Shown piece after piece: positions 19,678-35,404 of a stretch of DNA of 55,732 nt. The notes beneath the pieces were generated by a model, which was given only the letters and a program-made list of their open reading frames with translations, was not told the DNA's origin and made no database searches. Each line of letters opens with the position of its first letter. Position 1 is the first letter of the stretch. A program made the position numbers and the translations under genes. The DNA comes from a virus (Duplodnaviria; Heunggongvirae; Uroviricota; Caudoviricetes). Location of the stretch: IMG/VR virus record IMGVR_UViG_2563366819_000003, positions 1-55,732 of that record, one strand, 5' to 3'.

Positions 19678-19872
19678 TTATTCATCATCACTTTGGATTG
19701 ATGTATATGCTCTCTTTTCTGACGTTAGTCTCCGACGGCAGGCTTCAATGACCCAGGCTGAGAAATTCCCAGACCCTTTTTGCTCAAGAGCGATGTTAAT
19801 TTGTTCAATCATTTGGTTAGGAAAGCGGATGTTGCGGGTTGTTGTTCTGCGGGTTCTGTTCTTAGTTGACAT
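19678..19872 (-). CDS. Small DUF3950-like protein (YlcI-like)
   Basis: 64 aa, basic N-terminus; immediately upstream of cos/nu1 on opposite strand. Confidence 0.45.
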   Translation of the reverse strand: MSTKNRTRRTTTRNIRFPNQMIEQINIALEQKGSGNFSAWVIEACRRRLTSEKRAYTSIQSDDE

Positions 19873-20260: not shown

Positions 20261-20780
20261 ATGGAAGTCAACAAAAAGCAGCTGGCTGACATTTTCGGTG
20301 CGAGTATCCGTACCATTCAGAACTGGCAGGAACAGGGAATGCCCGTTCTGCGAGGCGGTGGCAAGGGTAATGAGGTGCTTTATGACTCTGCCGCCGTTAT
20401 AAAATGGTATGCCGAAAGGGATGCTGAAATTGAGAACGAAAAGCTGCGCCGGGAGGTTGAAGAACTGCGGCAGTCCAGCGAGGCAGATCTCCAGCCAGGG
20501 ACTATTGAGTACGAACGCCATCGACTTACGCGTGCGCAGGCCGACGCACAGGAACTGAAGAATGCCAGAGACTCCGCTGAAGTGGTGGAAACCACATTCT
20601 GTACTTTCGTGTTGTCGCGGATCGCAGGTGAAATTGCCAGTATTCTCGACGGGATCCCCCTGTCGGTGCAGCGGCGTTTTCCGGAACTGGAAAACCGACA
20701 TGTTGATTTCCTGAAACGGGATATCATCAAAGCCATGAACAAAGCAGCCGCGCTGGATGAACTGATACCGGGGTTGCTGA

Positions 20781-20806
<26 letters not shown>
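20261..20806 (+). CDS. nu1: Terminase small subunit Nu1
   Basis: 181 aa, near-identical to lambda Nu1 (MEVNKKQLADIFGASIRTIQNWQEQGMPVLRGGGKGNEV...). Confidence 0.95.
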
Positions 20807-23787
<2,981 letters not shown>

Positions 23788-23864
23788 AACCCTTGCTGCG
23801 TCTGGAATGTCGTTTTCCATGCTTTTGATGACCGTTCATCACCCTTCCAGTTTTTCGCGGTTTT

Positions 23865-23917
23865 GTGTATTGCAATGTGTATTGCAAATTGGCGATCGGG
23901 ATGGGTGTGTATTGCAA
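23865..23917. repeat. Three direct copies of GTGTATTGCAA upstream of satellite integrase (candidate arm-type integrase/regulator binding sites)
   Basis: gtgtattgcaa at about 23865, 23877 and 23907; related copies gtgtattgca / gtgtattgc at 34530..34551 near the other end of the element. Confidence 0.5.
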
Positions 23918-23935
23918 ATCTCTTGAGGGCTTTTA

Positions 23936-25177
23936 ATGGCTATTGAAAACAAACTCAGTGACAAACTGTTAAAGAGTCTTGTCGGAAAACGGCAGGACAA
24001 ACAAAAAACAATAGCGGATGGGCGCGGGTTGTCTGTGCGTGTAAGCATGGTTGGGGGGATCAGCTTTGTTTTTTACTATCGTCTTGGTGGCAGGGAATCC
24101 CCTCCGGTATGGCTTACACTTGGTCGCTATCCTGACATGTCTCTTGCAACGGCCAGGCGCATGCGTGATCAGTGCCGTGAATGGCTGGCTGAAAATCTGG
24201 ACCCCCGCAGGCAAATAAAACTTGCTGCCGAAAAAACTATGCAACCAGTGACCGTAAGGGATGCGCTGTTTTACTGGTACGACAATCACGCCACAACAGC
24301 CAGAAAAGAGCATGAATATTTAATAAAACGATTTGAAAAGCATATCTTCCCCTATATCGGTGATATGGCTATAGAACAGTGCAAATTACACACATGGCTT
24401 ACCGTCTTTGACAGGATCAAAAAAAATGCGCCTGTTATGTCTGGTGCAATTTTTCTTGATATCAAACAGGCGTTGCGTTTTTGTCGCGTCAGGCAATACA
24501 TCGCGTGCGATCCCTTTGGAGATATTAACGTAAGTTATGTCGGGCGCTCATCCGGTATAAGGGATCGCGTTCTTAATATCAATGAAACCGCTGATGTATG
24601 GTCTTATGCTTACGGTAATAATTTGCTAACTCTGTCATCAATATATAACCGAAGAATAATGGTTATCTGCCTGGTGTTTGGTTGCCGACAGCAGGAGGCG
24701 AGGCTATCCACCTGGGACGAATGGGATTTAAAAAACTGGGTATGGACAGTCCCAAAAGAGCACAGCAAAAACAAGGAGGCTATAGTAAGGCCTGTTCCTG
24801 ACGGAATAAAACAATGGATCGTTAATCTTTACGCAGAAACAAAAAATCGCGGTTATGTTGTCGGTTGTGCTTTGCAAAGGGCGACAATAACAGGGGCTGC
24901 AAACAGAATATGCAGGCGTCTTGGTCATGATACTAATGGCTTGTGGTGCATACATGATTTCAGGCGCACATTTTCCACTACGCTTAATGATATGGGGGCG
25001 GATCCTTATATTGTTGAACTTCTTTTAGGTCATAAAGTGAAAGGGGTTGCTGGTGTTTACAATAAAAGCAGGCATATAAAGAAAAAACTTGAGGTGCTTA
25101 ATATGTGGGTTAATTACCTTAATACGATAGCAGGATTTAACAACAACGTTATCGAGCTTAATAAAGAGGTGGTGTGA
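23936..25177 (+). CDS. int: Tyrosine integrase, P4-type
   Basis: 413 aa; C-terminal catalytic region (HDFRRTFSTTLNDMG...LLGHKVKGVAGVYNKS); at one end of the inserted element adjacent to the repeat. Confidence 0.9.
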   Translation: MAIENKLSDKLLKSLVGKRQDKQKTIADGRGLSVRVSMVGGISFVFYYRLGGRESPPVWLTLGRYPDMSLATARRMRDQCREWLAENLDPRRQIKLAAEKTMQPVTVRDALFYWYDNHATTARKEHEYLIKRFEKHIFPYIGDMAIEQCKLHTWLTVFDRIKKNAPVMSGAIFLDIKQALRFCRVRQYIACDPFGDINVSYVGRSSGIRDRVLNINETADVWSYAYGNNLLTLSSIYNRRIMVICLVFGCRQQEARLSTWDEWDLKNWVWTVPKEHSKNKEAIVRPVPDGIKQWIVNLYAETKNRGYVVGCALQRATITGAANRICRRLGHDTNGLWCIHDFRRTFSTTLNDMGADPYIVELLLGHKVKGVAGVYNKSRHIKKKLEVLNMWVNYLNTIAGFNNNVIELNKEVV

Positions 25178-25178
25178 T

Positions 25179-25436
25179 ATGGCAATTTATTCTCTTGTTG
25201 ATGAAAACGATTTGCGCACAATGAAGGACATTGATCGGTTCATTCGTGAAAAAGAGTGCATAGCACTTACCACGCTGGCAAACTCAACACGCTGGAAAAT
25301 GGAGCTAGCAGGTAAATTCCCGCGACGTATCAAGATCGGTGAACGTGCTGCAGGGTATCGACTTTCAGAGGTTCAGGCATGGATCCGTGGTGAGTGGCAT
25401 CCTGGATGGAAACCTGGAAAAACAAAACAGCAATAA
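25179..25436 (+). CDS. alpA: AlpA-family HTH regulator / excisionase-like protein
   Basis: 85 aa; AlpA-like segment LTTLANSTRWKMELAGKFPRRIKIGERAAGYRLSEVQAWI; directly downstream of the integrase. Confidence 0.8.
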   Translation: MAIYSLVDENDLRTMKDIDRFIREKECIALTTLANSTRWKMELAGKFPRRIKIGERAAGYRLSEVQAWIRGEWHPGWKPGKTKQQ

Positions 25437-25492
25437 CCAGTAAATAATGCCCCTCATCACGAGGGGTTTTTTGTCTATAAGGTAAAAACGCG

Positions 25493-26071
25493 ATGAATAA
25501 AAATATTGCCGTGACGGGCAAGGGGTACGCTCGTCCAGTGAAAAAATTCTGCGATATTCGTGATCTCGTCGTTCTGCGCTTTGATAGTGTGAACGTTCGT
25601 GTGGTGTATCTGAACGGCGATCCGTGGTTTGTTGCAAAAGATGTTTGTGCTGCGCTGGAACTAACCAATTCGCGTACGGCGTTGCAGATGCTTGATGATG
25701 ATGAAAAGGGAGTAAATTTAACTTACACCCCAGGAGGAAATCAGAATATGAGAATTATCTCTGAGTCAGGTTTCTACAAACTAATAGCCCGCAGCCGCAA
25801 AGCAACGACGCCTGGCACATTTGCTCATCGTTTCAGTAACTGGGTATTCAGAAATGTGATACCAGGTATCAGAAAAACGGGGACTTATGGTATCCCGTGG
25901 GGTGCATTACAGGATTTTTCCCGCCGTAAAGAGCAATATCAAATAAGTGCCAGCGAGAAGGGGAGGGAGCTACAGGCATGTAAGCGCAAAAAGCGTGAGC
26001 TGGAGGAAGAAGAAAAAACGCTGATACGTGAATATCAGCCTGAGTTTTACTTTGGTAACCGCATTCAGTGA
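25493..26071 (+). CDS. Bro-N domain protein (antirepressor-like)
   Basis: 192 aa; Bro-N-like core (VRVVYLNGDPWFVAKDVCAALEL...ISESGFYKLIARSRK...FSNWVFRNVIPGIRKTGTY). Confidence 0.65.
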   Translation: MNKNIAVTGKGYARPVKKFCDIRDLVVLRFDSVNVRVVYLNGDPWFVAKDVCAALELTNSRTALQMLDDDEKGVNLTYTPGGNQNMRIISESGFYKLIARSRKATTPGTFAHRFSNWVFRNVIPGIRKTGTYGIPWGALQDFSRRKEQYQISASEKGRELQACKRKKRELEEEEKTLIREYQPEFYFGNRIQ

Positions 26072-26404
26072 CAAAACAAAGGCGACCGCAAAAGGGTCGC
26101 CAGTGGGAACAAGGGAAAACAAAAGCATCACCAACAATGCCACATTTGCGGCTGGTGGGCAATGTGATCAGTCAGATTTGGTTCGTTCCAAGGTTTGCAA
26201 CGAGAGCTTTTTCCTGTGCTCTTTAAGGAATTTCTCAAGAGCAAACGAACAAGGTGCGAATCTTTCTGATTCATGTTCATGCGCTATATTTTTGCGTCGT
26301 CTCTTACGAGTTGGTGATGGTGTTTTGGTTGATTCTGTGTCGCTCATGGTGCTGTCCTGTAAAGCAATGCGCCTGCGTTCCTCAAACTATGGCGCTGATA
26401 TTGG

Positions 26405-26710
26405 CTATTCATGCTCTTTGACCTTGCGTCGCTGGAGTTCTTCACGCGCGACGGTGACGAGTTGCCCGATCTCCTCGGCTGCTTTGATGCCGATTTGTTC
26501 GACCTTAGCCAGGGCATCCAGTGACGACACAAGGGGATTTTCTCCGCTGCCTTCTGCTTGGCGGCGGGCTATTTCTCCGCGCATGGCGGTTACGATAAAT
26601 CCGGCATTGCTTTCACCGTCCAGCTTAACGGATTCCATCCCTTGCATAACATCTAGTGGGACTCTGACAGTTGTCAGTTGTGATTTTGCGTTTTTGTTAG
26701 CCGTTGCCAT
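26405..26710 (-). CDS. Hypothetical protein, divergently transcribed from the satellite replication operon (candidate regulator)
   Basis: 101-aa ORF on minus strand facing a promoter-operator-like region; no clear HTH recognised. Confidence 0.4.
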   Translation of the reverse strand: MATANKNAKSQLTTVRVPLDVMQGMESVKLDGESNAGFIVTAMRGEIARRQAEGSGENPLVSSLDALAKVEQIGIKAAEEIGQLVTVAREELQRRKVKEHE

Positions 26711-26770
26711 TTCTGAAACTCCTAATCATCGGTGTGTTTCAGTATACACAAAAAAAGAAATACAAAAAGC

Positions 26771-26809
26771 CTTGACGTGTGTTTCATGCGCTCATAACAT
26801 GAAACACAC
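26771..26809. promoter_or_regulatory. Promoter/operator candidate: TTGACG -35-like hexamer followed by a 12-bp perfect inverted repeat
   Basis: cttgacg tgtgtttcatg cgctcataa catgaaacacac; inverted repeat 26777..26788 / 26798..26809, between divergent genes. Confidence 0.4.
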
Positions 26810-26900
26810 CGAAAGGATTGTTGAAATACAAAGAGCAACGCCCCGCAGTGCTGGGAACACATACGGGGCGTCTAACCAACAACGTAAACTAGGAGCCGTT

Positions 26901-27098
26901 ATGGTTGCTGTAAATCATATACCACACCTTGTACACACACAAACGGCCTTTGTGTGGCGTTTTCTGGCACTGAGTGCCGGAGAATCTCAAATCATCCACG
27001 TAACCGCCTGGACGGAACGCGAAGCGCGTAGCCGTTGCCCGTCCGGTTGTGTTGCTGTATTCGCTGCAAAAATCCGCCAGGGAGTGAGTCATGCTTAA
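26901..27098 (+). CDS. Hypothetical small protein (65 aa), first gene of rightward satellite operon
   Basis: ATG at 26901 preceded by RBS AGGAG (26891..26895); lies at 3' end of a longer, compositionally odd ORF in the track. Confidence 0.35.
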   Translation: MVAVNHIPHLVHTQTAFVWRFLALSAGESQIIHVTAWTEREARSRCPSGCVAVFAAKIRQGVSHA

Positions 27099-27276
27099 AA
27101 CCTTCCGTGTATTTGCCCGAGCTGTTAACCCAATAGGCCACACAATTGGTATCGCTCAGAATGTGAAGGCTGTTAATGTTCAGACGGCTATTGCTGCGGT
27201 GAGAAGCGAATCATCAGAATATGGCTTATCACAAGTCATTATTTCAGCAGTGTATGAATTAAAAGAGGTGCATTAA
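27091..27276 (+). CDS. Hypothetical small protein
   Basis: 61-aa ORF with RBS GGAG upstream, overlapping neighbours by a few nt (translationally coupled operon). Confidence 0.35.
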   Translation: MLKTFRVFARAVNPIGHTIGIAQNVKAVNVQTAIAAVRSESSEYGLSQVIISAVYELKEVH

Positions 27277-27467
27277 TGCAGGAAATTACATTACACGAAG
27301 CCGCTGAACGTGCGCACCAGACAGAAATTATTTGCCGCCTTCTTGAGGTATACCCGAACAAAATTACAGATGCTGATATATCCGCACTGGCGAGCCTACT
27401 GGCGCGTCTTTCGGGAAGTGTCGCTAGTTTTTTGATTGAGGAAGAAAGTAAGCTGGTGGAGGATTAA
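27276..27467 (+). CDS. Hypothetical small protein
   Basis: 63-aa ORF in tightly packed operon. Confidence 0.35.
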   Translation: MQEITLHEAAERAHQTEIICRLLEVYPNKITDADISALASLLARLSGSVASFLIEEESKLVED

Positions 27468-27689
27468 ATGAATACAGAACGGGAAGTCTTTTTTAAATTG
27501 TTAGCATGTGCAGAAAGTTCATTAACTTTAAATAATTCAGCAAAAGCAATATTAAATATGTGGCTTGATTGCATAAATGACAATGAAGATGCAAATATTG
27601 CTTATGGTCTGTTGTCACTTATTGATGAATCAGCAGAAAAACTCAATGACGCAATAAATAGTGCCCTGCTATCAAATAAGTCGAGTTAA
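27468..27689 (+). CDS. Hypothetical small protein
   Basis: 73-aa ORF in tightly packed operon. Confidence 0.35.
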   Translation: MNTEREVFFKLLACAESSLTLNNSAKAILNMWLDCINDNEDANIAYGLLSLIDESAEKLNDAINSALLSNKSS

Positions 27690-27706
27690 GTCGAGGAATA
27701 AATAAT

Positions 27707-28006
27707 ATGGAAATGAAAAATTCTGGCTTTATTGCCAGCGGCCCAGCTCGACCTGAATTTATGAACGGCGATATTTACCGCGATAAATACGGCGGCACGG
27801 TAACGATTAAAGGCGTGGCAGAACGGCGCATCACTTACCGCCGTGAGGGGTATAGCTATGACTGCGTGATGCCTGTTTATCAGTTCCGGCGTGATTTTTC
27901 CCTGGTATATGCCGCACCCCGCAGTAAGCCCATCAGCAGGGAAAAAGCGTGGGGAAATATCCAGAAAATGAAAACCATGATTAACGGATTCAGAGGTAAA
28001 AAATGA
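27707..28006 (+). CDS. Hypothetical protein
   Basis: 99-aa ORF, stop overlaps primase start (ATGA). Confidence 0.4.
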   Translation: MEMKNSGFIASGPARPEFMNGDIYRDKYGGTVTIKGVAERRITYRREGYSYDCVMPVYQFRRDFSLVYAAPRSKPISREKAWGNIQKMKTMINGFRGKK

Positions 28007-29757
28007 AACTGGCACCGAACGTAAAACAGCAGTCACGCGGCATAAAACACAAAGGAACAGAAGTCATTATTTTTGCGGGTAGTGATGCCTGGGCACACGC
28101 GAAACAATGGCAGGAACATGATGCGCGTATGGCCGGAGATAATGAGCCTCCTGTGTGGCTTGGGGAGCAGCAGCTATCCGAACTGGATAATCTGCAAATT
28201 GTGCCGGAAGGCCGAAAATCAGCACGCATATACAGGGCCGGATATCTTGCGCCTGTAATGATAAAGGCGATTGGTCAGAAGCTGGCGGCAGCAGGCGTAC
28301 AGGATGCAAATTTTTATCCTGAGGGTATGCACGGCCAGGAGGTGCAGAACTGGCGCGAATATCTGGCCCGTGAACGCCAGAATCTTTCTGATGGTCTGGT
28401 CATTGAGCTTCCGGTAAAGCAAAAGGCGCAACTTTCGCAGATGGCGGACAGTGAGCGCGCGCAGTTGCTTGCCGATCGCTTTGATGGCGTTTGCGTACAT
28501 CCTGAAAGTGAAATCGTTCACGTATGGCGCGGCGGGGTATGGTGTCCGGTCAGCACAATGGAACTTAGCCGCGAAATGGTGGCGATCTATTCAGAGCACA
28601 GGGCCACTTTCAGCAAGCGCGTAATCAATAACGCCGTGGAAGCGTTAAAAGTTATTGCCGAACCAATGGGCGAGCCGTCTGGCGATTTGCTGCCGTTCGC
28701 CAATGGTGCGCTTGACCTGAAAACGGGGGAATTTTCCCCGCACACGCCGGAGAACTGGATCACCACGCACAACGGCATTGAGTACACGCCACCAGCACCA
28801 GGGGAGAACATCCGCGATAACGCGCCAAACTTTCATAAATGGCTTGAGCACGCAGCCGGAAAAGACCCGCGCAAGATGATGCGTATATGTGCCGCGCTGT
28901 ACATGATTATGGCGAACCGGTACGACTGGCAGATGTTTATTGAGGCCACCGGAGATGGCGGGAGCGGTAAAAGTACATTCACACACATAGCCAGCCTTCT
29001 GGCAGGGAAACAGAACACGGTAAGCGCTGAAATGACATCGCTTGATGATGCTGGTGGACGTGCGCAGGTTGTCGGGAGTCGTCTTATCGTCCTGGCTGAC
29101 CAGCCGAAATATACAGGCGAAGGAACGGGCATCAAGAAAATCACAGGCGGCGACCCCGTGGAAATTAACCCGAAATATGAAAAGCGTTTCACGGCGGTAA
29201 TCAGGGCGGTGGTGCTGGCGACCAACAACAACCCGATGATATTCACCGAACGGGCCGGAGGTGTGGCACGTCGTCGCGTGATTTTCCGTTTCGACAATAT
29301 CGTCAGTGAGGCCGAAAAAGACAGGGAGCTACCGGAAAAGATTGCGGCTGAAATCCCCGTTATTATCCGCCGATTGCTGGCGAACTTTACCGACCCTGAG
29401 AAGGCACGGGCTTTACTACTGGAACAGCGTGACGGTGATGAAGCACTGGCAATAAAGCAACAGACGGATCCGGTTATTGAGTTTTGCCAGTTCCTGAATT
29501 TTCTGGAGGAAGCGCGCGGCCTGATGATGGGTGGCGGTGGTGATTCAGTGAAGTACACGACCAGGAACAGCCTTTACCGCGTCTATCTGGCGTTTATGGC
29601 ATACGCGGGCAGGAGCAAACCGCTAAACGTGGCTGAGTTCAGCAAGGCCATGAAGCCAGCGGCGAAAGTTTACGGGCATGAATATATTACGCGAAAAGTT
29701 AAGGGAGTAACGCAGACCAACGCAATTACAACAGACGATTGCGACGCGTTTTTATAA
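28003..29757 (+). CDS. Primase-helicase (P4 alpha-like; primase domain plus P-loop NTPase)
   Basis: 584 aa; Walker A GDGGSGKST; overall architecture of phage/plasmid primase P4-family proteins; followed by iteron-like repeats. Confidence 0.85.
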   Translation: MKLAPNVKQQSRGIKHKGTEVIIFAGSDAWAHAKQWQEHDARMAGDNEPPVWLGEQQLSELDNLQIVPEGRKSARIYRAGYLAPVMIKAIGQKLAAAGVQDANFYPEGMHGQEVQNWREYLARERQNLSDGLVIELPVKQKAQLSQMADSERAQLLADRFDGVCVHPESEIVHVWRGGVWCPVSTMELSREMVAIYSEHRATFSKRVINNAVEALKVIAEPMGEPSGDLLPFANGALDLKTGEFSPHTPENWITTHNGIEYTPPAPGENIRDNAPNFHKWLEHAAGKDPRKMMRICAALYMIMANRYDWQMFIEATGDGGSGKSTFTHIASLLAGKQNTVSAEMTSLDDAGGRAQVVGSRLIVLADQPKYTGEGTGIKKITGGDPVEINPKYEKRFTAVIRAVVLATNNNPMIFTERAGGVARRRVIFRFDNIVSEAEKDRELPEKIAAEIPVIIRRLLANFTDPEKARALLLEQRDGDEALAIKQQTDPVIEFCQFLNFLEEARGLMMGGGGDSVKYTTRNSLYRVYLAFMAYAGRSKPLNVAEFSKAMKPAAKVYGHEYITRKVKGVTQTNAITTDDCDAFL

Positions 29758-29759
29758 TT

Positions 29760-30010
29760 TTTTGTAAAAGCCATCTACCCCATCTACCTGAACAAAATAA
29801 ACGCATATTATTCAACATGATAAGTGGGTATAGGGCTAGGTAGAAGGCTAATAAAAGCTCTCTACCTCTTCTACCTGATTTTATCAGTTTCAGGTAGCAG
29901 GGTAGACGGCAGGTAGAGGAGTCAAAAAGCTATCTACCCGCTGAAAGCCGCGCCATTACTGACATGATGAGCATTCGGGTAGATGGGTAGAGGGGGGGAG
30001 GCACAACTAA
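29760..30010. repeat. Iteron-like repeats (GGTAGA / TCTACC family) downstream of primase: candidate satellite replication origin
   Basis: Multiple direct and inverted copies: catctaccccatctacctg, ctaggtagaaggc, ctctacctcttctacctg, caggtagcagggtagacggcaggtagagga, gctatctacccgc, gggtagatgggtagag. Confidence 0.5.
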
Positions 30011-30103
30011 AAACTTTTTAAACGAGGGGGGTGAAAATAAATGCGCATACATAAAAATCACTTAACAAACATGCCAGCCGAAGACATGAATCAGGGGTGA
30101 CAA

Positions 30104-30355
30104 ATGACCAAAATTCGCAGAGACAGAACACAGGCAAAATATAAAGCGTTAGACATGACAGAGCTTTCCTTAAAGGTGGCAATCAAAGCGATAGACCACC
30201 ACACACGGGCAGGATACGCGAAGGAACATCCCGATCTGATAAGCGCATTCATGACCACAGCAGCGGCAAACTTTGCCACGCTGACAGAACGGGAGATTGC
30301 CGAAGCGGAACAGGTGACAACCATCAATGTTAAAACCGGAGAGCAGACAGCATGA
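30104..30355 (+). CDS. Hypothetical protein
   Basis: 83-aa ORF upstream of and overlapping the SSB gene start. Confidence 0.35.
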   Translation: MTKIRRDRTQAKYKALDMTELSLKVAIKAIDHHTRAGYAKEHPDLISAFMTTAAANFATLTEREIAEAEQVTTINVKTGEQTA

Positions 30356-30774
30356 CAGCACAGATAGCGGCTTACGGGCGGCTGGTGGCTGACCCGCAGT
30401 TAAAGACCACCAGCAAAGGGACACAAATGGCGATGGCGAGTATGGCGGTTCCCCTGCCGTGCAGCCAGGCAGATGACGGAACGGCGACGATGTGGTTATC
30501 CGTCCTGGCGTTTGGCAGACAGGCCGACGCACTGGCAAAACACCACAAAGGCGAACTGGTGAGCGTGGCGGGTAACATGCAGGTAAGCCAGTGGACAGGC
30601 CAGAACGGCGAAACGCGGCGGGGCTGGCAGGTTATCGCAGACAGCGTAATCAGTGCGCGAACGGCGCGACCGGGCGGCAAAAAAGGCCAGCAGGGGCAGG
30701 CCACTGACGCACTGAACAGGGCAAAACAACAGTCGGGGAATGATGATCCGTACGGCGATAATATACCGTTTTAA
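30352..30774 (+). CDS. ssb: Single-stranded DNA-binding protein (SSB-like)
   Basis: 140 aa; OB-fold-like body, Gly/Gln-rich linker and acidic C-terminal tip ...NDDPYGDNIPF resembling the SSB DDDIPF tail. Confidence 0.7.
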   Translation: MTAQIAAYGRLVADPQLKTTSKGTQMAMASMAVPLPCSQADDGTATMWLSVLAFGRQADALAKHHKGELVSVAGNMQVSQWTGQNGETRRGWQVIADSVISARTARPGGKKGQQGQATDALNRAKQQSGNDDPYGDNIPF

Positions 30775-30985
30775 ATTCTGCAAACAAAAAGATGCCGGAA
30801 AAAAATATATTTTCCGGCATGCTACATAAATCCCGACCAAAGGAAGTAAATACATTAACACGAATTATCAGCACTGAAGTTGTTACGGCATATTTTATAC
30901 AACATTGCACTTGGTTGCATGTATTCGCATAGCAGACATCGGTAATAGAATATATTCACAATTATTTGTAATGAATGTAAAGAGG

Positions 30986-32032
30986 ATGAGTATGGTTGAT
31001 TTATATTCGCCTACACAGCTTGTGCAGGTGGCTAATGCTGAAGATGTGCAAAAAAAATTAAATGCGTTGTTTACCAGTTTGTTTTTCACTCGCTCGGTAA
31101 TGTTTGAATCGAGAGACATTATTCTTGATACGATCGACGATCCAAATATCCCGATCGCGGCGTTTTGCTCTCCTATGGTGGGCAGTAAAGTTTCACGAGA
31201 TGAGGGATACGAATCAAAAACAATTCGTCCAGGTTATATGAAGCCGAAAAGCAGCATTGATCCAAATAAGTTAGCTGTGCGCCCTGCTGGTGTGTCACCT
31301 GAGCAATACAATGCTTTTGGGGCGCGTAATATTAAAGTTAAACAGGCGATTGTAAATCAGGCTAAAGCTATTCGTGCACGTATTGAATGGCTTGCTGTTC
31401 AGGCAATCACAACGGGGAAAAATATCATTGAGGGCGATGGTATTGAACGTTATGAGCTGGACTGGAATATAAAACCACAAAATATCATCACTCAGTCTGG
31501 CGGTACTGAGTGGTCAGGTAAGGATAAAGAAACTTTTGATCCAAATGATGATATTGAGAGCTACGCAGAATTTAGTGAGGGCGTCACTAATATCATCATT
31601 ATGGGTGGTAATGTATGGAAGAAATACCGTTCATTCAGAGCGATAAAAGAGGCTTTGGATACCCGTCGTGGTTCTAATTCCGAACTGGAAACGGCCCTTA
31701 AAGACCTTGGTGATTCGGTGAGTTTTAAAGGGTATATGGGCGATGTTGCGATTGTTGTTTACAGCGGGCGTTATACCGACGAGGACGGAACAGAAAAACA
31801 TTTCCTTGATCCTGATTTGATGGTGCTTGGCAATACGGCTCTTCAGGGGATTGTCGCCTATGGCGGTATTCAGGATCCGGAGCTAATCCGAATGGGGCTG
31901 ACTAAAGCCGAACTTGCACCGAAAAACTATATTGTGCCTGGTGATCCGGCTATTGAATATGTGCAGACACATTCAGCACCACAGCCAATACCGGCCCGCA
32001 TCAATCGTTTTGTTACCGTTCGCATTGGCTAA
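30986..32032 (+). CDS. Major capsid protein, divergent homologue of lambda E
   Basis: Starts MSMVDLY (lambda E MSMYTTA); shares blocks ITQSGGTEWS, DTRRGSNSELETA.KDLG, GDVAIVVYSG with the helper E at 37102..38127 (roughly half identical by eye). Start could also be 30992. Confidence 0.85.
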   Translation: MSMVDLYSPTQLVQVANAEDVQKKLNALFTSLFFTRSVMFESRDIILDTIDDPNIPIAAFCSPMVGSKVSRDEGYESKTIRPGYMKPKSSIDPNKLAVRPAGVSPEQYNAFGARNIKVKQAIVNQAKAIRARIEWLAVQAITTGKNIIEGDGIERYELDWNIKPQNIITQSGGTEWSGKDKETFDPNDDIESYAEFSEGVTNIIIMGGNVWKKYRSFRAIKEALDTRRGSNSELETALKDLGDSVSFKGYMGDVAIVVYSGRYTDEDGTEKHFLDPDLMVLGNTALQGIVAYGGIQDPELIRMGLTKAELAPKNYIVPGDPAIEYVQTHSAPQPIPARINRFVTVRIG

Positions 32033-32041
32033 GGGGGAGCA

Positions 32042-32383
32042 ATGGCTACTCATTACACTGAACTCATGGCTGGCACTGAAGCACTGGTGACTACGCTGGG
32101 GATATTTTCAGCTAATAAAGGGGTAATTCCTGCATTTACGCCACTGATGCAGGAAGATGCAACAGGTGCACTGGTGATATGGGATGGTTCGAGCGTAGGT
32201 AAAGCGGTTTATGTTTCCGCTGTACAAATCGACACAGCGAAAAAAACACAGGCACAGGTTTATAAGACAGGTGTTTTAAATGTTGATGCTCTGAACTGGC
32301 CTGAGTCTGTAAAAGAACTGTCGGCAAAGGTTGCCGCGTTTGTTGGCTCAGGTATTTCTGTTCAGCCGCTGGCTCGTGTGTAA
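32042..32383 (+). CDS. Head decoration protein, lambda D-like
   Basis: 113 aa, directly downstream of the E-like gene (same order as D-E reversed in lambda); similar size and pattern to gpD (FTPLM..., ...AV...GTAISV-like C-terminus). Confidence 0.65.
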   Translation: MATHYTELMAGTEALVTTLGIFSANKGVIPAFTPLMQEDATGALVIWDGSSVGKAVYVSAVQIDTAKKTQAQVYKTGVLNVDALNWPESVKELSAKVAAFVGSGISVQPLARV

Positions 32384-32394
32384 AGGGGGATACA

Positions 32395-32778
32395 ATGCAG
32401 AATCATTACAATGACCTTAAGCCAATTGCCGAAATGATGTATCCGGATCCAGCAGTAGAGGAATTAAAGGCTATTGCTGACAAAATGCGTTTAAGTGAAC
32501 GCCTTGTTGATATGAATCAGGTGATGGAACTTACTACCCTTAGCCGTCGCACATTGCTAAACCTTGAGGCTCGCGGAGAGTTCCCCGAACGCGTACAGGT
32601 TACGGAAGGGCGTAAGGCCTGGTATTTAAGTGAAGTGATCGACTGGATAAACAATATTCCTCGATCTTCTGAATATTGCCGCGTACCTGTCCCAAAAAAG
32701 CCAGATGCGGCGCTATGCCTCAAGATTGAGCGTGTACGTCGCAATGCACGGGATGGTCGCTATAAGTTGATTGGTTGA
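32395..32778 (+). CDS. AlpA-like HTH protein (second copy in element)
   Basis: 127 aa; segment LTTLSRRTLLNLEARGEFPERVQVTEGRKAWYLSEVIDWI has the AlpA-family pattern. Confidence 0.55.
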   Translation: MQNHYNDLKPIAEMMYPDPAVEELKAIADKMRLSERLVDMNQVMELTTLSRRTLLNLEARGEFPERVQVTEGRKAWYLSEVIDWINNIPRSSEYCRVPVPKKPDAALCLKIERVRRNARDGRYKLIG

Positions 32779-32799
32779 TGAAATTAGGGCCTGTTCTGG

Positions 32800-32875
32800 C
32801 TGGCGGGTCCTTTCCGGCGATCCGGTAGGCTACGGGGCGGCGACCTCGCGGGTTTTCGCTATTTATGAGCCTTTT
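32800..32875 (+). other. cos: Satellite cos site: cosQ/cosN identical to helper (cosN gggcggcgacct at 32835..32846), downstream cosB-side sequence divergent
   Basis: gggtcctttccggcgatccggtaggctacggggcggcgacctcgcgggttttcgctatttatga matches helper 20042..20106 except for a short patch; sequence after atttatga differs completely from helper. Confidence 0.85.
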
Positions 32876-32994
32876 TCGGGTGCTGGTGGTGGTTTTGTTG
32901 TTCGCTCTATCTCTATGAATAAAAAGGAAAAGATAAAGCCAATACACCAACCTGAAACATTACTTAAGTGGGGATATTGATGAAATCGCACCTG

Positions 32995-33522
32995 ATGAAC
33001 AAAAAAAACATGGCGCAAAGCTGCCGTGTAAGTGCGACAGCGTTCGACAAGTGGGGAGTGACTCCCGTTGAACGTAAAGGCCGCGAGGCGTTTTATGATG
33101 TTGCCAGCGTAATAGACAATCGGGTTAGCAATGCAATTAACCAGATTACAGACGACAAAGGCGAGATTGATGATGATGAACTCCTACGAGTCAGGATCAG
33201 ATTGCTGACAGCACAGGCAGAGGCGCAGGAGCTTAAAAACGAGCGCGAACGCGGCGACGTTATTGATACAGCGTTTTGTATATACGTGCTTTCAAAATTG
33301 GCGAGTCAGATTTCTTCAATCATGGACAGCCTGCCGCTTGCCATGACAAGGAAGTTTCCCGACATGAAGCCGTCTATGCTGGATGGACTGAAAAAAGAAG
33401 TTATCAGAGCCTGTAACGCATGCGCAAAACTTGACGAAAACATACCGCTGATGCTGTCCGATTATCTGATGGAAACTGCCGGAAACGTACCGGATAAGTT
33501 GCAGCCGAATAAAGATAAGTAA
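32995..33522 (+). CDS. Terminase small subunit, Nu1-like with divergent N-terminal DNA-binding domain
   Basis: C-terminal two-thirds resembles Nu1 (ELKNERERGDVIDTAFCIYVLSKLASQISSIMDSLPLAMTRKFP... vs helper ELKNARDSAEVVETTFCTFVLSRIAGEIASILDGIPLSVQRRFP...); N-terminal about 50 aa differ. Start chosen at MNKKNMAQ. Confidence 0.8.
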   Translation: MNKKNMAQSCRVSATAFDKWGVTPVERKGREAFYDVASVIDNRVSNAINQITDDKGEIDDDELLRVRIRLLTAQAEAQELKNERERGDVIDTAFCIYVLSKLASQISSIMDSLPLAMTRKFPDMKPSMLDGLKKEVIRACNACAKLDENIPLMLSDYLMETAGNVPDKLQPNKDK

Positions 33523-33533
33523 CGTAGTACGCT

Positions 33534-33815
33534 ATGACTGAATCCGAAATACTGCGATTAATCCGCCGTGCTTGTGGAATCAGCAAGCAGCATGACGAAC
33601 AGGCCACGCAGCCGGACAGCGTGACCGCAGATAATTATGTGCGTGTAGTGGCTGAGGTGATGCGCCGTGACGGTATTGAGCTTAACGGCGTGGATATGCG
33701 CAACATACGAACAAGAGTCCTTGAGTTGCTGGCATATCGTCGCCGTTCTCAACAACGGAGGGAGAGCGCGAAAAATACTTACCAGTGGAAGAAGCCGGAA
33801 CGATTGCGGCGGTAA
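33534..33815 (+). CDS. Hypothetical basic protein
   Basis: 93-aa ORF immediately after TerS; Arg-rich C-terminus. Confidence 0.35.
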   Translation: MTESEILRLIRRACGISKQHDEQATQPDSVTADNYVRVVAEVMRRDGIELNGVDMRNIRTRVLELLAYRRRSQQRRESAKNTYQWKKPERLRR

Positions 33816-33824
33816 CTTGCTGAT

Positions 33825-34222
33825 ATTCCCGATAACGCAAAATTGCGCTGGCTGACTTGTTGCATTGCAAAAAGTTAAGCAGGAAGGCACGGCCTGTAAG
33901 ATGGGATGCAGTAAGTAGTTCAAGGCTACCTTGTGCTGGCACGCACAGTTAAGCCGTCGGTGCTGGATATCCCCCACTGGGGGAAAAGCTGGCTACATCC
34001 CTCACATCTGAGGACTGATAACGCGACATTGCGCTGGCTGGCAAAGTGCAAAATTGCACGATGGCCTAACCCATTGATTATTTCGAAAACCTGCAATGCA
34101 GGAAATCGGGGAAGTAAGCCTAAGCTATTGATTGTTTCGAAAACCCCCATTGGGGGATGTCGGGAAAGTAAGACTAACCCATTGATTCTTCCACAATCCT
34201 CAATTTGAGGAGGCCGGAACGT
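33825..34222. repeat. Array of short hairpin-forming palindromes with differing stems in an ORF-poor region
   Basis: cgcaaaattgcg (about 33834), cccccactggggg (33971..33983), cctcacatctgagg (34009..34022), gtgcaaaattgcac (about 34055), cctgcaatgcagg (34100..34112), cccccattggggg (34154..34166), cctcaatttgagg (34207..34219); three share a flanking motif attgatt..ttcgaaaac. Confidence 0.45.
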
Positions 34223-34630
34223 CTACATAGCTGCATCGCCGTAATGATGATTCAGCCCACCAGCCAAATCAGCACAGCAACGACAGAATAGCCCGACACA
34301 GAAAAACCACGAATATGGGGTTTTTGTTATGACATGGTCATGATGACCACTCATACAAAACAGGTAAAGCCCACCAGCCTGATTAAAGGTTAACCGGAAA
34401 AAAGCCAGGTATCCAATCTCGATATGGGGATCCCTATATCGACATTAACGCTCACTAAAACTGTGCATATATGCATAGAAAAAGCATCCACCAGCTTTAT
34501 GACGGATGCCGCTCATCTTATAAATAATCGTGTATTGCAGTGTGTATTGCGACTCCTTTAAACGATAGGTCTGAGCATTCGTAATGTACTGTTTTTAAAT
34601 TTTATTTTTTCCTGTCTTTTCATAAAGGCG

Positions 34631-35404
34631 ATGTATGCCGCCACCATTGAGAGTGAGCTGGATACGCAGTCAGCGATGGATTTTATTCTGGGCGCGAACA
34701 GTCAGGAGCAGCGGGAAAGGCTGACCGGCTGGATTGGTGAAATTGCCGCGTATTACGCCGCAGCGCCGGTCCGGCTGGGAGGCGCAAAAGTACCGCACCT
34801 GATGCCGGGTGACTCACTGAACCTGCAGACGGCTCAGGATACGGATAACGGCTACTCCGTGTTTGAGCAGTCACTGCTGCGGTATATCGCTGCCGGGCTG
34901 GGTGTCTCGTATGAGCAGCTTTCCCGGAATTACGCCCAGATGAGCTACTCCACGGCACGGGCCAGTGCGAACGAGTCGTGGGCGTACTTTATGGGGCGGC
35001 GAAAATTCGTCGCATCCCGTCAGGCGAGCCAGATGTTTCTGTGCTGGCTGGAAGAGGCCATCGTTCGCCGCGTGGTGACGTTACCTTCAAAAGCGCGCTT
35101 CAGTTTTCAGGAAGCCCGCAGTGCCTGGGGGAACTGCGACTGGATAGGCTCCGGTCGTATGGCCATCGATGGTCTGAAAGAAGTTCAGGAAGCGGTGATG
35201 CTGATAGAAGCCGGACTGAGTACCTACGAGAAAGAGTGCGCAAAACGCGGTGACGACTATCAGGAAATTTTTGCCCAGCAGGTCCGTGAAACGATGGAGC
35301 GCCGCGCGGCTGGTCTTAAACCGCCCGCCTGGGCGGCTGCGGCATTTGAATCCGGGCTGCGACAATCAACAGAGGAGGAGAAGAGTGACAGCAGAGCTGC
35401 GTAA
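34631..35404 (+). pseudogene. B: Portal protein B, C-terminal fragment (257 aa), in frame with N-terminal fragment if the insert is removed
   Basis: MYAATIESELDTQSAMDFILGANSQEQ... continues lambda B exactly where the 22906..23735 fragment stops. Confidence 0.9.

Follow-up and report, generated by a model that had tools for sequence, protein, structure and literature searches.

Control region and inverted repeat

The window analysed here, the whole 55,732-bp (55.7-kb) stretch of IMG/VR virus record IMGVR_UViG_2563366819_000003, is an Escherichia coli lambdoid prophage whose portal gene is interrupted by a satellite, a Gram-negative phage-inducible chromosomal island (PICI). Our subject is the control region of this satellite, which lies between a leftward open reading frame (ORF) of 101 amino acids (26405–26710, minus strand), for which we propose the role of a repressor, and a rightward operon that is headed by the gene of a 65-residue Icd-like protein (26901–27098, plus strand) and leads to a primase. 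All results are computational. The original prediction, made from the letters of the sequence, had placed a divergent control region between the leftward ORF and the small-gene/primase operon, with a 12-bp perfect inverted repeat following cttgacg. Both elements of this description hold: the coordinates of the region are correct, the fold and the comparative evidence agree with its divergent layout, and the repeat is present at 26777–26809 with perfectly complementary arms.

The repeat consists of GTGTGTTTCATG (26777–26788) and CATGAAACACAC (26798–26809), separated by a 9-nt gap, and its left arm abuts the hexamer TTGACG (26772–26777; cTTGACG spans 26771–26777). It is the sole perfect inverted repeat of the window with arms of at least 12 bp and a loop of 3–15 nt, and 40 first-order Markov simulations produced a mean of 0.1 such repeats per window, which makes chance an unlikely explanation. 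The sequence of its arms extends beyond the repeat itself. In the whole window the 10-mer GTGTGTTTCA has just three occurrences, which all fall inside 78 bp at the control region, and its 8-mer core, with one mismatch allowed, forms five phased copies within 113 bp, a number that none of 200 shuffles of the region reaches.

Phased sites and promoters

The five copies of the core TGT[G/A]TTTC, at 26732–26830, are predicted to be the binding sites of the leftward protein, the co-variation in seven classes described below providing strong but indirect support. Three of them are perfect copies of GTGTGTTTCA: S1 (26732–26741, plus strand), S3 (26777–26786, plus strand), which is the left arm of the inverted repeat, and S4 (26800–26809, minus strand), which is the right arm. 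The remaining two, S2 (26757–26764, minus strand) and S5 (26823–26830, minus strand), read TGTATTTC and carry one mismatch to the core. The centre-to-centre distances from S1 to S5 are 24, 21, 23 and 22 bp, or about two helical turns each, and a fifth site specific to the respective class is also found in three related loci (L009, L011 and L022).

The array is laid over two putative promoters whose −35 regions stand back to back and whose inferred starts are about 70 bp apart. The rightward promoter P_R comprises a −35 hexamer TTGACG (26772–26777, plus strand) and a −10 hexamer TAACAT (26795–26800, plus strand) with a 17-nt spacer; S3 lies in this spacer (about −30 to −21), S4 at about −7 to +3, and S5 at about +17 to +24, within the U-rich tail of a predicted antisense RNA. 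The leftward promoter P_L has a −10 hexamer TATACT (26741–26746, minus strand) and a poor −35, and P_R looks the stronger of the two. S1 lies across the inferred start point of P_L, and S2 in its spacer and in the A-rich region upstream of P_R, so placed that S2 and S1 around the −10 of P_L are the mirror image of S3 and S4 at P_R. The Shine–Dalgarno sequence of the leftward gene, as read from the sequence, is AGGAG (26719–26723, minus strand), 8 nt upstream of the ATG.

The sigma-70 match TTGACG-17-TAACAT (26772–26800) fits 9 of 12 positions, and a scan of a 2.7-kb stretch found three such matches against 4.4 expected. Since matches of this kind are not enriched, the P_R call rests on conservation across loci and not on the scan: most loci retain TTGAC at the same place beside the sites, the −35 is in fixed register with them in nearly all loci, and a −10-like hexamer is located between the arms in class-1 relatives. 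At P_L, a TAnnnT motif is found at the same position in the anchored relatives (TATAAT, TATACT, TATATT, TATTGT, TAATGT, TATAGT and similar). The earlier view of a repressor-controlled promoter is retained in a modified form: the inverted repeat does overlap the spacer, the −10 and the start of P_R, but the predicted operator consists of five phased sites over both promoters rather than of a single repeat.

This arrangement also bears on whether the leftward protein might autoregulate its own cargo operon only, in the manner of an RHH antitoxin, with the overlap of S3 and S4 with P_R being of no consequence. A small ORF does follow the regulator gene in several loci; the gene in this position is, however, variable or absent in L016, L018 and L023, the two best sites (perfect 10-mers) are situated on P_R and not on P_L, and the P_R −35 stays in register with the sites in nearly all loci. 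We consider such a restricted role quite improbable.

Fold and distribution of the leftward protein

No helix–turn–helix (HTH) had been recognised in the leftward protein, and a Pfam scan indeed assigns it to no HTH family, because the protein appears to belong to a different fold, the ribbon–helix–helix (RHH) of MetJ, Arc and CopG. In our model an RHH domain at about residues 9–52 is followed by a long family-specific C-terminal helix at about residues 59–100. The NCBIfam model NF041551 of the YlcI/YnfO N-terminal domain matches residues 9–50 with 63.3 bits against a cut-off of 30 (E 1.6e-17), and RefSeq labels an identical gene as a YlcI/YnfO family protein. Among the PHROG families, phrog_6522 matches over the full length (E 1.5e-64) and phrog_949 over residues 1–52 (E 1.7e-13), both being listed with unknown function.

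Structure prediction had been suggested earlier as a check on the protein, and the AlphaFold 2 model of a single chain (pLDDT 82) is consistent with the RHH layout, with an extended segment at residues 10–17, helices at 19–28 and 35–55 and the long helix at 59–100; the strand is unpaired in the monomer. Polar and hydrophobic residues alternate along the strand KSQLTTVRVP, in which R16 and P18 are invariant, a G-x-S turn (DGESNAGF) precedes helix B, and E33 and A36 are shared by at least 90% of the sequences. Weak matches to the RHH family PF07704 are found in 35 of 45 homologues. We regard the fold assignment as good but not overwhelming, because Foldseek and the PDB sequence searches recovered no RHH proteins. 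The monomer model had no Foldseek match in the PDB; the family profile found no RHH chain among PDB sequences, its one marginal match being the helix–hairpin–helix of Hef (1x2i, E 0.004, residues 45–86); and an hhalign comparison with a Mnt sequence placed the strand in the correct register with a non-significant probability of 1%.

The C-terminal half (residues 52–101) is the best conserved part of the family. Searched by itself against 1.84 billion representatives, it recovers the same family only, and thus shows no sign of being a shuffled sensor module. An invariant motif within it, SSLDAL..VE.IG.KA.EEI (residues 56–79, window 26473–26544), resembles a helix–hairpin–helix, and AlphaFold renders this segment with high confidence as one continuous helix, in which G74 is invariant.

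The 216 homologues come from Escherichia, Salmonella, Citrobacter, Klebsiella, Enterobacter, Yersinia, Serratia, Xenorhabdus, Photorhabdus, Edwardsiella and other genera. A tblastn search of 50,697 phage records with the full-length regulator gave no match, which indicates that the full-length protein is not a phage gene, and DNA similarity locates the gene in 711 of 5,426 complete E. coli genomes, Nissle 1917 and ATCC 25922 included, in up to three copies per genome. The literature that we searched contains no function for YlcI/YnfO, no RHH regulator in PICIs and no repressor of the model element EcCICFT073.

The helper prophage carries a YlcI of its own (64 amino acids, 19678–19872, minus strand), which consists of the RHH domain only, with the strand TTRNIRFP; it is a member of PHROG 949 and a paralogue of the N-terminal domain of the satellite regulator. 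Transcription of the helper gene leads away from cos and Nu1 (20261), and no comparable repeat array is present in the intergenic region between ylcI and Nu1, which holds cos.

Co-variation of sites and regulator across loci

We compared the window with 18 further loci, taken from one-per-species genomes, contigs with diverse homologues, strain G12 and EcCICFT073, making up 19 loci from at least eight genera; sites were scored in 18 of them, and the control region of EcCICFT073 (strain CFT073) was read by eye. Synteny is the same in all loci examined: int and alpA come first, then variable cargo and the regulator, and opposite the regulator an icd-like gene heads a series of small ORFs, DUF4222 and a replicase. 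Repeats are found at similar offsets from the −35 in 18 of the 18 scored loci, and the same layout is visible in CFT073.

The sequences of the sites fall into seven classes, which track the class of the regulator beta-strand and N-terminal arm, and the cross-matrix of motifs against regions is close to block-diagonal. The strand QLTTVRV or QLFTVRV is found with TGTGTTTC, KQISIRI with TGTGATT, QSLTARI with TGTAAG, QQ[LI]NARF with TGG[TG]ATTC, Q.KN[IV]R[IF] with GGTGTGTA, QMTTLRV, combined with a different N-terminal arm, with GTGAGATA, and the QALKARV of EcCICFT073 with GTGTGGCCCAC. A GTGT-like 5' part of the site is common to all classes, while in the protein N7, S10 and R16 are invariant and positions 11–15, 17 and the arm are variable; this would fit an arrangement in which the invariant residues face the shared bases and the variable residues the differing ones. 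In class 1, which unites loci of E. coli, Xenorhabdus, Photorhabdus and Serratia, the arms have been preserved and the spacer has diverged save for the −10-like hexamer.

A repressor that evolves together with its operators as one specificity cassette should show just this kind of co-variation, which is our main reason for accepting the core idea of the original prediction. The regulatory role of the leftward protein, which had been drawn from its position, now has other grounds as well: with its RHH domain, and with DNA-reading residues that co-vary with the repeat across 19 loci, the protein is the best candidate for the factor binding there.

Could the repeats be bound by some other factor, be it AlpA, a replicase acting on iterons or a helper protein, with the RHH gene being incidental? 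Iterons are present in PICI origins, and AlpA is the only regulator shown by experiment (PMC6092414). The distribution of the classes nevertheless renders this very improbable. AlpA is 100% identical in L001 (strain G12) and L014, whose site classes differ, and 67% identical in the window and L001, which have the same sites; the site class is thus independent of AlpA identity and follows instead the RHH beta-strand class, and we reject the repeats as AlpA sites. We likewise reject them as replicase iterons, since one site class is found with different replicase families (class-1 sites with both D5_N and DUF927 enzymes); the PICI origin, moreover, has been reported downstream of pri (PMC10111431).

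The same data effectively refute the notion that the inverted repeat is a product of chance, or an RNA hairpin or terminator devoid of operator function. Short inverted repeats are admittedly frequent in intergenic DNA, but beyond the rarity of such a repeat in the simulations, the arms change as a unit between classes with no compensatory base changes, the spacer holds the −10, and most of the repeat is upstream of the inferred start. We give this notion hardly any credence.

The regulator of EcCICFT073 (L025 9474–9653, minus strand; NC_004431.1 1380473–1380652) has 59 amino acids. Its RHH domain is joined straight to the last eight residues (…EIKRRQ followed by RRKAKEQE), an in-frame loss of the C-terminal helix, and its control region keeps both the class-specific repeats GTGTGGCCCAC and the antisense-RNA fold. 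The existence of this C-terminally deleted form may be one reason why the regulator has been overlooked.

Predicted antisense RNA

A second layer of control is likely to be exerted by a cis-antisense regulatory RNA of the sar or RNA II type, predicted on the minus strand at 26824–26907 with a length of about 84 nt. Its first stem-loop, SL1 (26906–26874), is complementary to the start codon and Shine–Dalgarno sequence (GGAG, 26892–26895) of the icd-like gene, and is followed by the linker GGUUAGA, a G+C-rich second stem-loop, SL2 (26872–26837), and a U-rich tail. The minus strand of 26907–26824 folds to −33.6 kcal/mol (z −4.5), as against a z of −0.9 for the sense strand, and RNAalifold yields −22.6 kcal/mol leftward versus −8.9 rightward. 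Read in the sense orientation, the pairing of the conserved hairpin at 26837–26872, which lies between the operator and the icd-like ribosome-binding site, would contain 20 A–C mismatches versus one G–T over 18 loci, which identifies the minus strand as the RNA strand; a sense-strand leader hairpin was rejected, since pairing and fold energy both favour the minus strand. In the structural alignment 96% of the cells are paired and compensatory changes are seen in 12 of 23 pairs, and none of 500 shuffles attains the observed value on any of five measures. The plan of the RNA is the same in all loci, with lengths of 82–86 nt.

The putative promoter of the RNA has a −10 hexamer TATGAT (26914–26919, minus strand), whose T, A and final T (T32, A33 and T37) are invariant in 18 of 18 loci. 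It overlaps codons 5–7 of the icd-like gene, where the encoded residues are variable, the conserved Icd domain beginning at residue 17. A candidate −35, TTGTGT (26937–26942, minus strand), is separated from it by a 17-nt spacer and is not universal among the loci.

A search of 23800–30500 on both strands with Rfam models at E ≤ 1 found no family, P4 CI, P1 C4 and isrK included. Independent support for the RNA comes from plasmids: a blastn search with 26711–26950 matched 102 enterobacterial plasmids over exactly 26823–26907 at about 80% identity, so that the block of homology ends at the predicted RNA boundaries. In pECO-6dfa (NZ_CP026200.1; L026 2769–3489) the block adopts the same RNA fold (z −4.65). 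On one side of it is the gene of a different, 59-residue RHH-like protein (WP_012600012.1), whose TTGACA promoter carries TGTAATG repeats; on the other is an ORF whose N-terminus is icd-like, and beyond this ORF come BrxR and BREX genes. The same 59-residue protein and the block recur on a second plasmid (L027), for which the PLSDB gene table lists no downstream BREX genes.

A proposed maintenance switch

Starting from the fold of the protein, the array of sites, their co-variation with the DNA-reading residues, and the structure and strand of the RNA, all of which were computed in this analysis, we propose, with a probability of about 0.7, that the region serves a Gram-negative PICI as its maintenance switch, in which an RHH repressor, its five sites, two back-to-back promoters and an antisense RNA silence the replication genes. 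With regard to binding and repression, we infer that in the quiescent state the 101-residue protein would be made, along with the cargo ORF, from the weak P_L on a transcript ending at 26081–26101. Probably in the form of dimers joined via the C-terminal helix, it would occupy S1–S5 on one face of the DNA; its binding at S3 and S4, over the P_R spacer and the −10 and start, would shut off the icd-like/DUF4222/primase operon, and its binding at S1 and S2 would constitute negative autoregulation. The antisense RNA, if expressed from the promoter in the first icd-like codons, would pair with the icd-like ribosome-binding site and start codon and silence those transcripts that escape repression, an effect that the overlapping frames would pass on to the downstream replication genes and the primase. 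Alternatively, part of the regulator mRNA could come from the antisense promoter through read-through of the terminator, an arrangement in which this transcription and P_R would point at each other, like the promoters of the phage 186 switch.

How would such a switch be released? AlpA is the proven activator of Gram-negative PICIs, and their published regulation consists of AlpA (PMC6092414). Since the regulator gene is convergent with everything that AlpA drives, and no strong rightward terminator was found in the interval between Bro-N and the regulator, read-through presents itself as the simplest induction route. Rightward transcription from the AlpA-activated promoter, plus, in this embedded copy, the helper late transcript arriving via the split portal gene, would run antisense across the regulator gene and its promoter and would supply icd–primase mRNA independently of P_R; for embedded PICIs, such an entry of helper late transcription has been suggested before (PMC10111431). 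Equally possible, either as an alternative or as an addition, is a protein antirepressor that targets the conserved C-terminal domain. The original prediction had named the Bro-N protein and the helper as candidates for derepression. We reject Bro-N as a general antirepressor, a role made unlikely by the absence of a Bro-N gene between alpA and the regulator in five of the eight annotated related loci examined, and our analysis found no evidence coupling derepression to helper induction. A lambda-type boxA/boxB nut site was also considered and rejected, the order of the elements being wrong. The earlier interpretation is, on balance, partly supported: largely right, it is incomplete in that it misses the RHH fold, the site array and the antisense RNA.

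A different timing of action, whereby the RHH protein would operate in the induced phase in the manner of Cro or P22 Arc, turning down the replication operon and itself or setting the copy number, deserves consideration. The combination of an RHH protein and an antisense RNA over a replication operon is a plasmid copy-number design, exemplified by CopG with RNA II in pMV158; the weakness of P_L, back to back with the stronger-looking P_R, points the same way, and the short form of EcCICFT073 is compatible with a non-essential modulator. On the other hand, the regulator gene is transcribed away from, and convergent to, all the AlpA-activated genes, the cargo genes after the regulator, such as the TumE-type module in L021, fit a promoter that is active in quiescence, and the specificity classes, at least seven in number, resemble the diversification of immunity repressors. 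Action in the induced phase therefore appears unlikely to us.

Several observations count against a maintenance switch as we have outlined it. AlpA is required for induction (PMC6092414), so the RHH protein cannot be the sole control. The mobilisable model PICI EcCICFT073 is without the C-terminal helix, which means that either the domain is dispensable or the regulator is non-essential. The P_R match (9 of 12) is by itself not above background, and P_L has no convincing −35. The spacing between S1 and S2 in the window exceeds that in its relatives by one base, and the orientation of the sites is class-dependent, with two inverted pairs here and direct pairs in the K-N classes. We know, furthermore, of no documented precedent for a spacing of 21–24 bp among characterised RHH operators.

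Relation to known control systems

By sequence the control region belongs to none of the systems whose designs come closest to it, namely P22 immI, pMV158, P1 immI and Stl/Rpr; what is distinctive here is the two-turn phasing of five sites and the family-specific C-terminal domain. The immI region of P22 comprises the RHH repressor Mnt with its C-terminal assembly helix, the operator O_mnt, the divergent promoters P_mnt and P_ant, and the sar antisense RNA. It shares with the proposed switch an RHH repressor with an extra C-terminal helix, divergent from its target operon, an operator inside the target promoter, and a short cis-antisense RNA (here predicted) against the translation start of a gene in the repressed operon. 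It differs in that the satellite regulator has no significant similarity to Mnt, in its single 17-bp operator as opposed to five sites about two turns apart, in the operon, which here encodes an Icd-like protein and a primase and not an antirepressor, and in the host, which is a satellite here and a phage there.

In pMV158/pLS1, the RHH repressor CopG and the antisense RNA II act on the copG–repB replication operon, and the proposed switch would resemble it in placing an operon for replication initiation under an RHH repressor and a countertranscript that covers a translation start. The copG gene, however, shares its transcript with repB, and the single element that CopG binds, at its own promoter, is pseudosymmetric, whereas the regulator described here is divergent, twice as long and associated with a phased array, and the predicted RNA targets the leader gene rather than the replicase.

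The immI region of P1 and P7 (C4 RNA–icd–ant) has, as proposed here, an icd-type leader ORF that heads the operon, is the target of the immunity RNA and is translationally coupled to the downstream genes. C4 is encoded on the icd transcript itself, ahead of icd, and acts on the leader in trans, unlike the predicted cis-antisense RNA of the satellite, and the Rfam models of C4 and isrK do not match here. Omega of pSM19035 (inc18) provides an example of RHH dimers that bind with cooperativity to short repeats in arrays, the number and orientation (direct or inverted) of the repeats differing between promoters; its heptads are contiguous (a 7-bp register) and not spaced at 21–24 bp, and Omega is without a C-terminal helix domain.

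The Stl and Rpr proteins, master repressors of SaPIs and other Gram-positive PICIs, are HTH/CI-like. They are larger than the satellite regulator, which is an RHH protein with no Pfam HTH family, and the likeness is functional at most. As with Stl/Rpr, the regulator gene maps to the interval from int to the replication module and diverges from the replication operon, and its presumed role is silencing until the helper is active (PMC6092414). Derepression by a helper protein has been demonstrated for Stl. Gram-negative PICIs also need the activator AlpA.

Implications for Gram-negative satellites

Gram-negative PICIs are widespread and carry genes for defence and virulence, and the paper that founded the field called their global repressor "unclear" (PMC6092414). 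In the literature searched, the silencing role that we propose is filled by no described protein of Gram-negative satellites. Tentatively, and as a possibility that we hold with less than even confidence, we suggest that the master repressor still 'missing' from Gram-negative PICIs is this RHH protein of the YlcI/YnfO type. The operator array and the non-Rfam antisense RNA would then form a portable silencing cassette with at least seven heteroimmune classes, its RNA and leader part being found also beside BREX with another RHH-like protein on one plasmid, and induction would proceed by convergent read-through driven by the helper or by AlpA and not by a classical antirepressor.

Were this to be true, a repressor/operator/antisense module at the map position of Stl/Rpr would narrow the difference between Gram-negative and Gram-positive PICIs, and a first function would be found for the YlcI/YnfO family, a paralogue of which adjoins cos in the helper prophage. 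The discrete specificity classes would predict heteroimmunity between satellites and could provide orthogonal repressor/operator pairs for engineering. The module offers three promoters and five sites that are directly testable.

Host element and neighbouring genes

In the helper prophage, the terminase gene (20781–22706) is followed by a lambda-type portal gene that is split after codon 293 (22906–23787) and resumes at 34631–35404. The insert of about 10.8 kb (about 23788–34630) contains int (23936–25177), the AlpA gene (25179–25436; PF05930) and genes for a Bro-N protein, then the control region, and genes for the primase, SSB, a major capsid homologue, a decoration protein, a second AlpA-like protein and a Nu1-like protein. 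With int, alpA and the primase gene in one direction, a length of about 10 kb and a location inside a lambdoid late gene, the element is a Gram-negative, helper-embedded PICI. This configuration is a known one, described by Tommasini, Mageeney and Williams (PMC10111431), in whose account backward genes are treated as hypothetical and the non-hypothetical genes are called unidirectional. The close relative L001 interrupts the major capsid gene of a different prophage.

The Icd-like protein, the product of the first gene of the rightward operon, matches NCBIfam NF033153 with 63.7 bits against a cut-off of 25, and its stop codon overlaps the next start (27091). The remainder of the operon (27091–29757, plus strand) comprises three small ORFs, DUF4222 (27707–28006) and the P4-family primase/helicase (28003–29757), the stops and starts of the rightward ORFs overlapping; it probably continues via SSB to a hairpin at 30792–30820. 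This hairpin, ATGCCGGAAAAAAATATATTTTCCGGCAT, is near-palindromic, has A/T runs on both sides and is located just past the SSB gene; it is probably a bidirectional terminator that closes the replication operon before the capsid gene. The Icd-like protein also matches phrog_1743 and phrog_6196, both of which are labelled 'transcriptional repressor', and no relative of solved structure was found for it. Its role could be that of a Cro-like counterpart to the RHH protein, and not division inhibition.

Downstream of the regulator, and probably co-transcribed with it, lies an ORF of 59 amino acids (26168–26347, minus strand) for a small basic protein with the motif ESERFAPC(A/S)FALE, which belongs to phrog_21027, a family of unknown function. 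Homologues occupy the same position in EcCICFT073, L019, L020 and L022, and elsewhere unrelated cargo takes its place, such as a 178-residue protein or the TumE-type module of L021. The likely end of the leftward regulator operon is a hairpin resembling an intrinsic terminator (26081–26101, minus strand), in which GGCGACC...GGTCGCC, with seven pairs of which six are G–C, is followed by the T-rich tail TTTGTTTTGT.

Towards the far end of the satellite, a second AlpA-like HTH protein and a Nu1/TerS-like protein are encoded at 32395–32778 and 32968–33522. The C-terminal half of the latter resembles the helper Nu1 (20261–20806), which suggests that the satellite may redirect packaging.

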